The notes beneath the pieces are model-generated. The model ran no database searches. It was given only the letters and a program-made list of their open reading frames with translations, and was not told where the DNA came from. The position numbers and the translations under genes were made by a program. A stretch of DNA of 64,000 nucleotides from Callorhinchus milii (lineage: Eukaryota): NCBI RefSeq assembly GCF_018977255.1, contig NW_024704742.1:85934001-85998000 (forward strand), in the 5' to 3' direction. This document shows, in pieces, positions 6,095 to 49,676 of the stretch (position 1 is its first letter; each line of letters starts with the position of its first letter).

Positions 6095-6303
6095 GTTTAT
6101 GTGCAAACATGGCGTCCGCAGAACCTAACGATGACCATTGTAAGAGACGAGTATCCCGCCAATCCCATGACCCTGCGGGGCATCAACCAGCGAGCGGACT
6201 TCCAGCAATACCAACCAGTGGTCATGCTGCAGAAAGGCTACACGATTCACTGGAATGGCCGGGCGCCAGAGGAAACCTTTCTATATCTTATCAACTTCGA
6301 TAA
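6095..6303 (+). CDS. CEMIP2: CEMIP2 coding exon (acceptor abuts an L2 tail)
   Basis: gttgtag|GTT..AA|gtaag; VYVQTWRPQNLTMTIVRDEYPANPMTLRGINQRADFQQYQPVVMLQKGYTIHWNGRAPEETFLYLINFD. Confidence 0.92.
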
Positions 6304-6574
6304 GTAAGTAGTCTTAGCTCCAACCTTGGATAGCTCCAGTGGAGGGCAGTAAGGAAAGCTCAACCTGAAAAGGTCAGCACCCAAAATAATAAGAATAATC
6401 CTTGCAGTAATGTCAGCCTGGCTCAATGGTAGCAATTGTAATATTAGTCACTCGTTCCATGGCTGTTTGTGGGACATTACTGCGTGCGATTGGGCTACTG
6501 TGTTTCGTCCCCAGAATACACAGTCAACCCACTCCACAGAAAATCCTGTGAAATGCTTTGAGACATGTCGCCTC

Positions 6575-6985
6575 CGTTTTAGAAGGTTGTGGGTTCAAGC
6601 CCCACGTCGGGACTTGAACTCACATAGTCTAAGCCGACATTCCAATGTGGTGCTAGGGGGTATGTTGCTTGTCAGAGGTGCCCTCCTTCAGATGAGACAT
6701 TAAGCTGAGGACGCATCTGCCTGTTCAGGGGGACGTTAAAGATCCTATACACGATTTGAAAAGAGAAGGGAGTTTCTCCTGGCGTCTTGGCCAACAATCC
6801 CCCAAATAAAATTGGTTCACTTGCTCCATGGCTGTTTGTGGGACATTAGGGTGCGCAATTGGGTTGCTGCGTTCCCCTCTACAAAACACACAGTCAACCC
6901 ACTTTACAGTATATCCTGTGAAGCGCTTTGAGACGTCTCGACAACGTGATAAAGCACTATATCAAATGCAAGGATTATTTTTATT
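6575..6985 (+). mobile_element. Deu-domain SINE (AmnSINE1/SacSINE1-type core)
   Basis: GTCAGAGGTGCC..TTCAGATGAGACATTAA..GGACGTTAAAGATCC..GGCCAACA core; other degraded copies near 11290-11580, 19486-20290, 40760-40920(-), 58930-59090(-). Confidence 0.7.
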
Positions 6986-7821
6986 GGTATAACACCTTTC
7001 ATGTCAGGAGGACGCTCCAAAGCATTTCGCAGGATTTACTGTGAAGTGGAGTGACTGGATATTTGTAGGCGAACACGGCAGCTGAAGTGCCCACAGTAAT
7101 GTTCCCAAAGCCCCGTGAAAAATAGCTCCAAAGAACACTGGGGGTGGGGACTCTTTCCACTCAGCTCCTGTTAACCCCAAAGTCAAAGTCCGATCGGACA
7201 GGGTGATCCTAGCTAGACAAGCAGTGGGAAAGCTTGCCAGGCACTGCTTTCAATGGCAAGCTATGTGGTTTTAACAGGTTAAACTCCAGCAGTACTCCCA
7301 ACGCACATTCTGGGCTCTTGCCAATCTGGGCCAAATATTCTCTGCAACTAGATAAGCAGGGTGCGACCCTCCAGGGAGAGAATGTAGGTGGTGATGTGTT
7401 TTGCATGTGTCAGATACCCAGCTAACCAAGAAAATAGACACAGCAGCAAAAAAAGTGGTTGAAGTACAAAGTGCAATAGTTTTTTTTCAAAAGGGATTTG
7501 GACATGTATGTGAAAAAGGAAAATGTCAAACGCGAAGGTGGGGGGGAGTGAGACTGAATGTATTTCTCTGGATAGCGTGGTTATAGCCATGATTTGGCCA
7601 AGGGGTATGAATTGGCCACAGGTCTACATTCTGTGTGAGCTGTAAAATCATAGAATTATAAGATCGACCGGTTGAATTCCCTGATCTGCTGTTTCCATAT
7701 ACCAGGCCACACTATTGTTTGAAGCTGGTGTTTCCAGCAGGGGCAAAATTTGACGCCACCAGTATGTATGTGCATGCACAAGATGCACTCTCTATTTACA
7801 TTGTTTCCCCCCCCACCCCAG

Positions 7822-8004
7822 AAAGGATTGGATTCAGGTTGGTCTGTGTTACCCCCGGAGCAGCACCTTCCAGGTTATGGCTGATATCTACCAAAGGCAG
7901 AACTCTTCCGCTCACAGTGTGGAGGATTATGGAGCCGTATCCACGCTTAAAGAGCTCCAGGAGAAACCGTCGGAGAGAAAGTACTATTTTGACAATAGTA
8001 CCGG
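7822..8004 (+). CDS. CEMIP2: CEMIP2 coding exon
   Basis: cccag|A..GG|gtgtg; KDWIQVGLCYPRSSTFQVMADIYQRQNSSAHSVEDYGAVSTLKELQEKPSERKYYFDNST. Confidence 0.9.
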
Positions 8005-9124
8005 GTGTGTCTTATCTTTTCTCTTTTGCAAGGGTACTCTTATGCGATAAAAAACAAAATATAATATGACTGAGCGAACGTGGCGCTTACTAACGATTTC
8101 CGCTGTCATTACAATTGCACAATTTTAGCACGACATCCTGCAGTTTCTGCAAATGATTTTAGTCTGATGGTCAGGAAAGGATTGATAAGCTGTATGCCTG
8201 GGGCATTAACAGGGAAAGGCAATTGAAACTACAGTGAAGCCTTATTATACTGCATTTCTTTATAACTGAGTCAGTTCAGTGTGGATCCTGTTGATTGTTC
8301 ATGTGCACAGTTGACCTCTTTGCTTCTTGTGCACCAGTGGTCTCTTGTGCTTAAATGTTGTTTTAGTACCAGCTCCGAACAATTCCTTCCCCCTCCCTTG
8401 CCTCCCTCAATTTCCTTCTCCCTTGTGTATGCATTGTTTTCCCTTAAATGCATCAGTGTTTTTTTTTTGCTGCAACCACAGCTTCCAGCAATGAATTCCA
8501 CATTATCACATTCTTGGAAAGAATAAATTCCTCTTAAACCTAAGCTATTAGATCTGCTACTGATTATCCACTCACTAACAAGTGGAAACAGCCTGTCTAT
8601 GTCCATCTCATCAAATCCATACATAATTGTAAACACCTATCTGGTCCCTTCTCAATCATCTCTTCCCTGGAGAGAAAACCTCTAACCTGACCATTTTTCT
8701 TCATGGGTGCATACACTCACTTCCCGGGTAACATAATAATCTAGTATTCTGTGCCTGAACTCGGGAGATATGGGGGGTATTGAGATAGAAAAGTAGAAAA
8801 GTTGGACTGGGTCATTGTGCAATGAATATTTACAATAATCTGAATGTCCTGAATTAGTTCTTAAAACACCCGTTTCCCAAACTGTAACTTCAACCATGTC
8901 AACCTTGCCACATCTGTGCTTTATCTTTTGCCACTTTGGCAAAAAGGCATTTTGCAACCAATTTAATGGAGTCTGTAAAAGAGAGGAGGGTCTAACCTAG
9001 GTGGATTTCTAACTGGACTCCTTAGTAAGGAAGCTGAGAGGGGATTACTTCTGGTAACAGGTCGGTCTGATTCATTAGATCGTGCTCGACAGTAGTGGTT
9101 TCAATGTCCGTGAGTCAGCATGAC

Positions 9125-9486
9125 GAAGTCCTGTAGCATTGTGGTTAGAGCGCTCGCTTCGCAAGTGAGAGGATCCAGGTTCAATTCCCGGGCAGGGCAA
9201 CACCTTAGGGAAGTTTCCTCACTCCACGCGGCTCTGTTTGCCGAACAGTAGGTAGGAACCTGGTTGTTAGTTGATTGGCGGATTGCTTGCTGGGGGTAAT
9301 AATCCCTCCAAAAATGTTTTTTAAAAAATTGATCACTCCATCCATGACTGTTTGTGGGACACTGCTGTGTCATTTGGCTGCTTGTGTTTCGCTCACAAAA
9401 TATGCAGTCCACTTTACAATATATCCTGTGAAGCACTTTGAGAAGTGATAAGGCACTATATTGAATGCAAGTATTATTATTATTAT
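9125..9486 (+). mobile_element. tRNA-derived SINE (same family)
   Basis: Head/box B GGTTCAATTCC and tail GCACTATATTGAATGCAAG(TAT)n. Confidence 0.85.
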
Positions 9487-9630
9487 GACGTCCTGTTCTG
9501 ACCTACTAGATTTTGGTGATTTCGGTGAATTAAATCGGAAAACCTCAGCTTTCCCCACTTTGGCAGCTCAAACCTCTTCATTGAAATGATACCCAGGTGA
9601 ACGCTGCTCTCTTGCTCTTCTCTTTCCCAG

Positions 9631-9850
9631 GCTGCTATTCTTAACTCTTCAAGCACGGCAGGCTCGAGAGGGTCACAGCTACTGCTCTGTCCAAGGCTGT
9701 GAGCGGATCAAGATTTCTGCTACCATGCGCTCGCAAGAGCAGAGCAACTGCAGGTCCAGAGCCTATCCCAAATATTCCCAGCCTCCCAAAGCCATCATAC
9801 CAATGCCAGCACCCATCTCCAAGCAATGTGAAAACTGCGGAGCTTCTAAG
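9631..9850 (+). CDS. CEMIP2: CEMIP2 coding exon
   Basis: tcccag|G..AAG|gtaaa; LLFLTLQARQAREGHSYCSVQGCERIKISAT...CRSRAYPKY...CENCGASK. Confidence 0.92.
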
Positions 9851-10688
9851 GTAAAAGACATTTCCATTAAATACGACTGTTGGCCCTTAGACTGACTGAC
9901 AGCCTCTGTATAAGTTTGCAGAGCAGAAGTGTACTGCCTCATTGTCCCAGTGACCTCTGGTTTTTATGACACCTCCAGGAAAATATCTTACTGTGTACGT
10001 CTGGTTGGAAAGGCTTCATTCCCTCACACAATGGTCTGGCAAAAGGAATTAGATTTTAAAAGAGCAAATACTGAAACAGGCTTGGATTTCAATCTCCTGA
10101 GGGGGCGTCTTGTTAAGGTTCACATTGCTCTGGTGAGGACAGCGCATGTTGCACCGATGATTACCCTTCTACGCTTTTGGTCATCTTTTGCCCCTCCCCC
10201 CAGTTTGGGTTCCCAGCCAGCTGTGTAAAAGGCTTTACGAGAGCCTCCTGATGTGGAAGGTGCTGTATAAATATAAGTTGTACTGCTGACGCCTTAAAGG
10301 CTTGCAGTAGTTCAGCTGAGCCATTTCCAAAAGAATTAATTTCATAGCCACATGCTCAGATCAAGATCGCTGGGATTTGAAACGGGAATTCATGCCGAGA
10401 GCTGGAGGGGAGTTGGGGCTGTTTTCTCTCCTAAAGTGGATCGAGTTAGAACGAGTTCCTGTCGCATCCTTCCAGATCGGTTGTTGAGGAATCCTGCTTG
10501 AAACAGCCACACTGTGTTGCTCTCTATTCAGTCTCTGGTCTTCCCCTCTTACAATCTGGAGAACATGGTGAGGTCCACAACATGTCGTCGTTGCTTAGCA
10601 ACAGTGACTGACACGTAATAGATGCCTATGGCTGCAGTATTTAATCAGATCGCGAGCTGATGCGTGTGTCTGTATCTGTATTCTGCAG

Positions 10689-29838: not shown

Positions 29839-30040
29839 ATGACACTGCGTGAAGCGATTAGGATCATAGACAAAAATGTACCAATAACAGAACGGGTCCT
29901 AGATTACTGCCAGTAAGTGGGCACAGACAAGGCAGCAACGATTTTTGAAATGCTGCAGTCTCACTATGACACTAGTCTGATATACTATGAATTTATCATT
30001 CAACTTTCTTACAGACTCTTTTAAATAAGAACATAAAAGC
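29839..30040 (+). repeat. Inverted duplicate of TBC exon 4 3' part plus intron 4 start (28930-29134)
   Basis: GAAGCGATTAGGATCATAGACAAAAATGTACCAATAACAGAACGGGTCCTAGATTACTGCCAGTAAGTGGG is the reverse complement of the exon 4/donor region, with scattered substitutions. Confidence 0.9.
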
Positions 30041-46630: not shown

Positions 46631-47091
46631 TCCAAGCCCAAATCTCGATCTTTTCTTGGCTGCATCGGCTCCCACATCTCCCAGGGGGTCGAACCCACAG
46701 TATATTCCGTGAAGCGCTTCGAGACATTGCGAAGACGTGATAAAGCGCTATATCAAATGTAAGTGTTATTGTAACATCCTCACCCTTTGGCTCTGGGTCT
46801 CTCTCACTGACCCCGATGCTCTCCCTTTTCTCTCTCTGAACCCATCTCTCTCTTTCTCTCCAGCCCTGGTCTCCCTCTGTTCCCCGGGTATCTCCACCCC
46901 CCACAAGCCTGTTCTGCCACTCTATTAGATCAGGGCTGATCTGTACCTCAACTCCATTTAGCTGCCTTTGCCCCATGTCCCTCGTTACCCTTAATTTACA
47001 AAAATCTACCCACCTCAGTCTTGAAAACGTGAATGGAAATTTTTCCTCTCCCCGGTCTGTCCGCCTCGGGACTCTCCCTCTCGATTCTCTT

Positions 47092-48322
47092 TCTCCCCGG
47101 GTCTCTCCCCATCCCCCCCTCTCCCCGGGTCTCTCCCCATCCCCCCCTCTCCCCGGGTCTCTCCCCATCCCCCCCTCTCCCCGGGTCTCTCCCCATCCCC
47201 CCCTCTCCCCGGGTCTCTCCCCATCCCGCCCTCTCCCCGGGTCTCTCCCCATCCCCCCCTCTCCCCGGGTCTCTCCCCATCCCCCCCTCTCCCCGGGTCT
47301 CTCCCCATCCCCCCTCTCCCCGGGTCTCTCCCCATCCCCCCTCTCCCCGGGTCTCTCCCCATCCCCCCCTCTCCCCGGGTCTCTCCCCATCCCCCCCTCG
47401 CCCCGGGTCTCTCCCCATCCCCCCCTCGCCCCGGGTCTCTCCCCATCCCCCCCTCTCCCCGGGTCTCTCCCCATCCCCCCCTCTCCCCACCTTCTCTCCC
47501 CCCCCCTCTCCCCCGGGTCTCTCCCCATCCCCCCCTCTCCCCACCTTCTCTCCCCCCCTCTCCCCGGGTCTCTCCCCATCCCCCCCTCTCCCCGGGTCTC
47601 TCCCCATCCCCCCTCTCCCCGGGTCTCTCCCCATCCCCCCTCGCCCCGGGTCTCTCCCCATCCCCCCCTCGCCCCGGGTCTCTCCCATCCCCCCCTCTCC
47701 CCGGGTCTCTCCCCATCCCCCCTCTCCCCACCTTCTCTCCCCCCCCCTCTCCCCCGGGTCTCTCCCCATCCCCCCCTCTCCCCACCTTCTCTCCCCCCCC
47801 TCTCCCCCGGGTCTCTCCCCATCCCCCTCGCCCCGGGTCTCTCCCCATCCCCCCTCTCCCCGGGTCTCTCCCCATCCCCCCCTCTCCCCACCTTCTCTCC
47901 CCCCCCCTCTCCCCCGGGTCTCTCCCCATCCCCCCTCGCCCCGGGTCTCTCCCCTCCCCCTTTTCCACCGAGCCCCCCTTCTCACCCGGGTCTCCCTCCC
48001 TCTCCCCCCGGGTCACCCTCCCCCTCCCCCCGGGTCTCTCTCCCCCCGGGTCTCTCTCCCCCCGGGTCTCTCTCCCCCCGGGTCACCCTCCCCCCGGGTC
48101 TCTCTCCCCCCGGGTCACCCTCCCCCCGGGTCACCCTCCCCCCGGGTCACCCTCCCCCGGGTCTCTCTCCCCCCGGGTCACCCTCCCCCCGGGTCACCCT
48201 CCCCCCGGGTCTCCCTCTCTCTCTCTCCCCGGGTCTCCCTCTCTCCCCCCGGGTCTCCCTCTCTCCCCCCGGGTCTCTCCCCCCGGGTCTCCCTCCCTCT
48301 CCCCCCGGGTCTCCCTCTCCCT
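47092..48322 (+). repeat. Pyrimidine-rich minisatellite, ~28-bp unit CCCCGGGTCTCTCCCCATCCCCCCCTCT, degrading into ~17-20-bp CCCCCCGGGTC(A/T)C(C/T)CT variants
   Basis: Tandem repeats read directly; period 28 at 47095/47123. Confidence 0.95.
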
Positions 48323-48337
48323 CTCGCGGTCACTGAC

Positions 48338-48635
48338 CTCCTCTGAAGATGAGTTTCCTGAACTGAGACTCTCCCACCAGCCGCCCGTCCGCGTCCAGCA
48401 GGAACCTGAAGGTGTCCAGGTCGAGCAGCGCCCGGGCCCCGGGGCCGCACTTGGCCCCCGCCGCCGCCTCCTCCTCCTCGCCATCGGCCAGCCGGACACA
48501 CAGCCCCTCCCCCGCCGCCACCTCCTCCTCCTCCTGCTGCCGGCTGCAGCTCTGCTGCCCGGGGCCCCGCATCCTGTCCTCCTGCCCGGGACTCGGCTTC
48601 GCCGCCGCCTGGCCCTGCGCCCCTTTCCCCTCCAT
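48338..48635 (-). CDS. TBC-domain Rab-GAP, exon 1
   Basis: ATG at 48635 with an in-frame upstream TGA; low-complexity N-terminus then LDLDTFRFLLDADGRLVGESQFRKLIFRG; G|gtcag donor; all 10 exons sum to 1470 nt (489 aa + stop). Confidence 0.85.
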
Positions 48636-48735
48636 CAGCCTCCCGCTGCCGCCAGCTCAGGCCCCATGGGGTCAGCCTCCGCTCCGCTCCTGCCCCCGCC
48701 AAGCTCTCGGCTCCCAGAAGAGAGTGAGCGGCCCC

Positions 48736-49345
48736 GTCACCATGGCGACCATCACGCACCTCGTCAGCAAGAGGAACGTCACTCAACACGCCCCCCCCGT
48801 CACCATGGCGACCATCACGCACCGCGTCAGCAAGAGAACGTCACTCAACACGCCCCCCCGTCACCATGGCGACCATCACTCCCCTCGTCACCATGGCGAC
48901 CATCACGCACCGCGTCAGCAAGAGGAACGTCACTCAGCACGCCCCCCCGTCACCATGGCGACCATCACTCCCTTCGTCACCATGGCGACCATCACTCATC
49001 TCGTCAGCAAGAGGACCGTCACTCACCCCCCCCCCCGTCACCATGGCGACCATCACTCACCTTGTCAGCAAGAGGACTATAACTCACCTCCCCGTCACCA
49101 TGGCGACCGTCACTCCCCTCGTCACCATGGCGACCGTCACTCCCCTCGTCACCATGGCGACCGTCACTCCCCTCGTCACCATGGCGACCATCACTCACCT
49201 TGTCAGCAAGAGGACCATAACTCACCTCCCCGTCACCATGGCGACCGTCACTCCCCTCGTCACCAATGAGACCGTCACTCACCGCCCCCCCCGTCACCAT
49301 GGCGACCATCACTCACCTCGTCAGCAAGAGGACCGTCACTCACCG
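48736..49345 (+). repeat. Promoter minisatellite, 27-bp unit with palindromic core GTCACCATGGCGAC (13 perfect copies), alternating with GTCAGCAAGAGGAC-type variants
   Basis: Cores start at 48736, 48799, 48860, 48887, 48949, 48976, 49037, 49094, 49121, 49148, 49175, 49232, 49293. Confidence 0.95.
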
Positions 49346-49676
49346 CCCCCCCCCCCCCACCCCCACCCCCGGCACCAGGGAAACCGTCATTCCATTATCC
49401 ACTTTCCCGGTATCATCCACTAAATCAGTGAGGAGATTGTCACCAGAGAGACTGTCACTCACCCCCATTGGAGACCACAGTCTTACCAGGGAACCACAGC
49501 ATTGTCAGTCAGACTGTTAATTCACAACAACTTACACTTACACAGGACACTTCATTTGAAATGCCTTAAATTTTAATTGGCAGTTTTAAAATTCTGATAT
49601 CACTGGGCATTTTGAGGCATTTCCCCGAACGTTAAACTGTATTAACTGTGTCCTCACCTCAGGCACTGACAGCTTC

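Follow-up and report, generated by a model that had tools for sequence, protein, structure and literature searches.

A minisatellite of X-box-like sites beside the probable transcription start of a TBC Rab-GAP gene in the elephant shark

Upstream of a TBC-domain Rab-GAP gene of the elephant shark Callorhinchus milii, a minisatellite repeats one X-box-like 14-mer 13 times, and our favoured reading, held with moderate confidence, is that repeats growing locally at a CpG island multiplied a genuine but second-tier X-box of the RFX factors. In this scheme tandem repeats would have accumulated to either side of exon 1 at the CpG-island promoter, the upstream repeated piece of 27-36 bp would have contained an RFX X-box-type site, presumably descended from a working one, and slippage together with unit shuffling would have produced 13 copies of the best-matching version (the A unit) among eight non-matching relatives. 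The most likely point of initiation is about 10 bp downstream of the first copy. RFX dimers probably occupy the proximal copies as sites of the second rank and add to expression, and the number of A copies would result from repeat turnover and would not be a dial set by selection, with recombination at the CpG island presumably driving the growth and copying whatever adjoins the start. All positions refer to the window, that is, the whole stretch of 64,000 nucleotides that was analysed.

The array and the candidate transcription start

The minisatellite occupies positions 48736-49352 and, according to tandem-repeat and unit analysis, consists of 21 units, of which 13 are A units (27 bp, with an X-box-like core), seven are B units (30-36 bp) and one is a C unit. 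The A core is the 14-mer GTCACCATGGCGAC, which has 13 exact plus-strand copies between 48736 and 49306; with up to two mismatches, on both strands, 26 matches are found against a mean of 0.24 in shuffled sequence. A preliminary description of this DNA had counted 13 perfect palindromes, and the 13 exact copies stand while the perfect palindromy does not, since between the 14-mer and its reverse complement 12 of the 14 letters agree and two do not. The proximal core lies at 48736-48749 (RFX2 core score 0.93, p about 1e-6), and 12 identical cores start at 48799, 48860, 48887, 48949, 48976, 49037, 49094, 49121, 49148, 49175, 49232 and 49293. The first B unit (48763-48798), the other B units at 48826, 48914, 49003, 49064, 49202 and 49320, and the C unit at 49259 are not X-boxes by matrix. 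Beyond the end of the array near 49352, degenerate relatives continue to about 49495, with three of them, at 49371, 49439 and 49482 (49371-49495), giving weak X-box matches of 0.81-0.85. The A, B and C units and the flanking relatives align as one lineage, in which eight of the 21 units (seven B and one C) are homologous to A. Successive A cores are 27 bp apart in five of 12 intervals and 57-63 bp apart in seven, in agreement with the 27-bp unit and the higher-order pattern of about 57-63 bp noticed earlier.

Contigs were compared from three of six RNA-like runs with small shares (X5, X6 and X7) and from one of four DNA-like runs (X1); none of the runs is annotated as RNA, and differences in word share among the four DNA-like runs (0.51-0.66) were left aside. 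One X5 contig covers 48527-48728 at a depth of 4.4; its end, which is not a loose one, falls 8 bp from the first A core. The DNA run X1, from which the DNA analysed here may itself derive, crosses this contig end without a difference, and the X6 and X7 contig pieces stop at 48468. The X5 contig end lies 3 bp from the A, at 48725, of an initiator-like motif (48721-48727, minus strand), which is the only one between 48631 and 48760 that follows the initiator pattern YYANWYY and is the candidate transcription start. This one contig, from one study, is a weak hint that transcription starts near 48725 and that the array is promoter DNA, not 5' UTR, leaving a 5' UTR at 48636-48728 (minus strand) in the same contig. 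The 5' UTR holds a 10-codon upstream open reading frame (48635-48667, minus strand) whose TGA stop overlaps the main ATG. The array had been placed directly upstream of the TBC gene, with its first copy 101 bp upstream of the minus-strand ATG; the distance is reproduced, with the ATG at 48635, and the array adjoins the likely start site. If the start is near 48725, as this one contig suggests, 11 of the 13 A copies lie within 500 bp of it, which is the robust window for human X-boxes given in the accessible part of PMC5838959.

The gene and its family

Judging from sequence matches, the gene, with its ten exons on the minus strand (19027-48635), is the C. milii ortholog of si:dkey-238d18.4, a TBC Rab-GAP without a formal name. 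Exons 2-10 match a C. milii record carrying that label, which lacks exon 1, and exon 1 matches the N-termini of shark proteins; the GC-rich exon 1 between the arrays is thus missing from the public protein record. Coding exon 1 (48338-48635, minus strand) lies within the CpG island and is spliced in all three RNA-like runs compared. RNA contigs of X5 and X6, from two studies, join it to exon 2, and therefore both runs are RNA and the ATG exon is real. In an X7 contig of depth 47.9, exon 1 is joined to a cryptic AG within repeat-like sequence of intron 1 (46631-46716, minus strand); the frame stops after about 30 codons, so that a non-productive isoform exists. Part of exon 4, together with its donor site and adjoining intron sequence, recurs in inverted orientation at 29845-29960 (plus strand), about 700 bp from the real exon.

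The TBC domain, with intact IxxDxxR and YxQ motifs, is shared with the Rab-GAPs TBC1D15 and TBC1D17 and with TBC1D21. Among the matches listed, however, named TBC1D15/17 proteins are 27-33% identical to the marsupial member, in contrast to 43-89% for members of the family, which marks a separate subfamily. Members were named in sponge, molluscs, echinoderms, lamprey, sharks and bony fish among 20 of 150 representatives that were looked up, and the best 30 matches in one search were marsupials, squamates and turtles plus one unnamed entry. Placental mammals and birds do not appear among the 120 of 318 matches listed, which missed fish as well. In a quick tree of 61 sequences of at least 300 residues, on which the orthology does not depend, the subfamily (P0151, P0153 and P0317-P0344) has a long amniote branch of 1.77 changes per column. 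In one metagenome relative (L002, 404-4927) the TBC domain ends a single open reading frame of 1,500 codons, far longer than in the other members. Searched by itself, exon 1 matched no Pfam family and nothing useful in the PDB. Upstream of the array, no Pfam family was found in 110 open reading frames of at least 52 residues, so that nothing within the window points to a divergently transcribed partner; downstream, exons of a CEMIP-family gene (6095-9892, plus strand; three of 146 open reading frames scanned) converge on the TBC gene.

Likeness to X-boxes and growth of the repeats

Six published X-box consensus patterns, taken from the accessible part of PMC2375033, were applied to the 14-mer, which passes two of them, the two loosest. 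The loosest, RYYNYY N1-3 RRNRAC, fits on both strands, as had been claimed, but it has 67 further matches in the window outside the array, and according to the available text of its defining paper (PMC2375033) its presence is not predictive. The strict pattern RTNRCC N1-3 RGYAAC fits neither strand; on the plus strand a single base is at variance. The preliminary description had also proposed a scan with JASPAR RFX matrices, and here the picture is stronger. With the RFX2 matrix MA0600.1, as printed in PMC5838959 (Table S4) and with ten T counts reconstructed from the totals of the columns, the A core reaches 0.91-0.93 (p about 1e-6; 0.88-0.92 with the full matrix), above the threshold of at least 80%. 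It is the best RFX2 site in 64 kb, with no site outside the array scoring as high, and it outscores five of eight validated human X-box cores (ALMS1, printed with a different spacer, was left out). The B and C cores reach only 0.69-0.78, below 0.80 (four core types scored), and by the RFX5 half-site matrix the A core is unremarkable, as 12 sites outside score as high. The X-box likeness noticed earlier is strong by the RFX2 matrix, and the 14-mer fails four of the six consensus patterns, the strict one included.

A GTT or AAC half is present in eight of nine validated human promoter sites (PMC5838959, Table S5, as far as available), and neither half of the A core has it; a matrix that treats positions independently may overrate sites of this kind. 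The two largest departures of the A core from the RFX2 optimum are at positions 12 and 3, both G/C where A/T is preferred, and correcting position 12, the largest, would add 3.5 bits. These mismatches would fit a GC-biased erosion of a better ancestral site. From the matrix p value, such a site is expected in about one of 20,000 random 27-bp units, which makes descent from a real site likelier than chance, an advantage that narrows where many arrays and motifs are scanned. Since the relics in the flank score 0.81-0.85, the lineage looks X-box-like from its origin. An MHC-II X1-X2 module was rejected because of the spacing, given the usual position of X2. In the accessible literature, the 14-mer and three symmetric variants of it occur in three papers, all on unrelated matters.

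The alternative that survives best, although we regard it as unlikely, is that a GC-rich quasi-palindrome around CCATGG scores on RFX matrices without being used by RFX, the array being neutral growth. The missing GTT/AAC half and the eight of 21 units that do not match speak for it, as do two distant metagenome relatives for which start codon and upstream DNA are present: their upstream X-box scores are not above shuffles (35 and 11 of 100 as good), in sequences that are AT-rich and far removed. In a further relative (L008) only four of 100 shuffles were as good, but there the DNA lies upstream of an internal match and not of the start. Against a chance resemblance stand the p value of about 1e-6 and the rank of the core as the best site in 64 kb, together with the position of the array beside the candidate start and the X-box-like relics in its flank.

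As to how the copies arose, a 16-22 bp C-rich tandem array lies just inside intron 1 (48022-48317), followed by a 28-bp C-rich array of about 32 copies (47092-47960). Together these two arrays (47092-48317) begin about 20 bp into the intron. Exon 1 is thus a piece of about 400 unique bases between three unrelated arrays, and the presence of arrays on both of its sides points to a process blind to the motif. The elephant-shark PRDM9 is described as partial and slow-evolving, with no expression found, and where a species has no working PRDM9 its recombination is concentrated at CpG islands (both from the available text of PMC5519329); a link from such recombination to the birth of repeats would be consistent with this arrangement. 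Hairpin-driven expansion was considered and rejected, the single-strand folding being no better than that of shuffles (z -0.06).

Methylation, variation and other readers of the array

The minus-strand partner of position 12 is the C of a CpG, and the A core thereby has what characterizes MDBP/RFX1 sites, a CpG cytosine where T is preferred. This opens two readings in which methylation decides on binding. The more elaborate one, which we consider improbable, is a polymorphic methylation-gated RFX platform: a weak unmethylated row of sites beside an active start would, when methylated, become 13 mimics of the strict X-box, RFX1 occupancy would rise as the promoter is silenced, the number of A units would set the switch, and repeat growth at CpG islands under a partial PRDM9 might routinely multiply real promoter sites. 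The plainer version, an array that binds weakly unless the core CpG is methylated and then binds strongly, RFX1 reading 5-methylcytosine as T, seems to us slightly less probable still. In its favour are the place of the largest matrix departure, opposite the C of the CpG, and reports, in the accessible parts of PMC3185043 and PMC2926618, that RFX1/MDBP accepts 5-methylcytosine in place of T. In PMC13042984, as far as available, RFX proteins are enriched on methylated probes, and COL1A2, the sole validated site without a GTT/AAC half, is called methylation-responsive in the title of a cited reference. On the other side, the CpG observed/expected ratio is 0.87-1.06 in the array as compared to 0.41 in the window, and all 13 core CpGs are intact, as expected if the array is mostly unmethylated. 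Expressed elephant-shark starts are mostly unmethylated in the available text of PMC5437953, and methylated sites are described, in the portions accessible, as second-tier for RFX1. CpGs neighbouring the cores carry transition variants (four CG to nine CA in the linker, five CG to two TG before B units).

We also give little credence to the reading of the preliminary description, in which the array is under selection, varies in length and tunes a ciliary or sperm Rab-GAP through RFX. The A core has no variable column (0 of 14) while the linker has 7 of 13 (Fisher p 0.002), and this invariance is no more than suggestive of selection, which would argue against a pure by-product, given that A units were defined by their core, that B cores are also steadier than their tails and that the copies share descent. 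Two X1 contigs carry unit junctions that are absent from the window: at one junction, in 11 of 16 31-mers; at the second, in the single 31-mer tested. These junctions, rebuilt from alignment tables, suggest a second allele with another unit order, the alternatives being an assembly error or a second locus. The array had been called a VNTR, and the unit orders that differ from the window, seen in this one DNA run, make it at most a candidate for one. Among human VNTRs, those no more than 100 bp from a start have twice the likelihood of influencing expression, but only about 6% of the tested human genic VNTRs were associated with expression (both from the accessible part of PMC8024321). As for the gene, no ciliary or sperm link was found for its family, and no TBC1D21 or ciliary gene name appears, among the matches listed. 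In the available data of PMC11167523, the zebrafish ortholog is detected in whole larvae at 4 dpf, and its level does not differ significantly in a cilia mutant (logFC -0.35, adjusted P 0.41). The name si:dkey-238d18.4 was not found in the main texts of the literature covered, and the zebrafish gene is absent from one ependymal table from which a control gene is absent too. A ciliary or sperm role is unsupported, and RFX targets, in the accessible text of PMC7498320, include ciliary genes more often than expected but extend beyond them.

Equally doubtful is that something other than RFX reads the repeat. CREB/ATF proteins could act on half-CREs, YY1/ZBTB4-type proteins on CGCCAT, or the array could lie in the 5' UTR and act via upstream ATGs. 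The array has 29 CGTCA half-CREs as against 42 in the rest of the window, in line with the half-CREs and CpGs that had been noticed in the units, but no full CRE was found within it. The minus-strand CGCCAT is one base off a ZBTB4 site as quoted in the text available, and it resembles a YY1 site. Read on the strand of the gene, each A core contains an ATG in a Kozak-like context, and would add an upstream ATG if the array were transcribed; among the RNA contig pieces listed, however, none reaches the array, a weak point as contigs show presence only. The N-termini of 125 orthologous proteins show no clear X-box footprint (one irrelevant regex match). The sawshark model P0001 begins with M-G-T some 35 residues too early, and this start could derive from an X-box ATG.

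Returning to the amplified, second-tier X-box, if RFX binds the copies and output follows the number of A units, nature would have provided a graded series of X-boxes at a vertebrate promoter, on which methylation-gated RFX binding and the summing of homotypic RFX sites could be tested. The array would then also be a first regulatory clue for an old TBC subfamily that spans sponges to marsupials. If not, the array is one more CpG-island minisatellite of the elephant shark.

Several known systems share features with this arrangement. The HRAS1, INS and TYMS repeats are promoter VNTRs with factor sites, and MNS16A is a promoter VNTR with GATA1 sites (PMC5438627, available part). Human promoter eVNTRs, as far as described in the accessible part of PMC8024321, have the same tandem units by the start, a factor motif in each and signs of allelic variation, and the elephant-shark repeat is likewise a tandem array at a promoter; it differs in that the factor would be RFX and that two unit types are interleaved. 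No RFX-site VNTR or minisatellite was found in the literature covered, which holds few subscription journals. With the vertebrate promoter X-box (JASPAR MA0600.1; PMC5838959, accessible part) the array has in common the 14-bp inverted repeat with an AT spacer, the high score and the position near a start, but it has 13 copies, not one to three, no GTT/AAC half, and its sites are candidates. Methylation-dependent MDBP/RFX1 sites such as that in COL1A2 exon 1 also have, in the text available, a CpG cytosine where RFX prefers T, whereas the elephant-shark array looks unmethylated, judged by its CpG content. In the C. elegans F25B4.2 promoter (PMC3245922, as far as available), several X-boxes likewise lie upstream of one gene, but there they are two separate motifs that act non-additively, the distal one repressing, while in the elephant shark the X-box-like sites are a tandem amplification.
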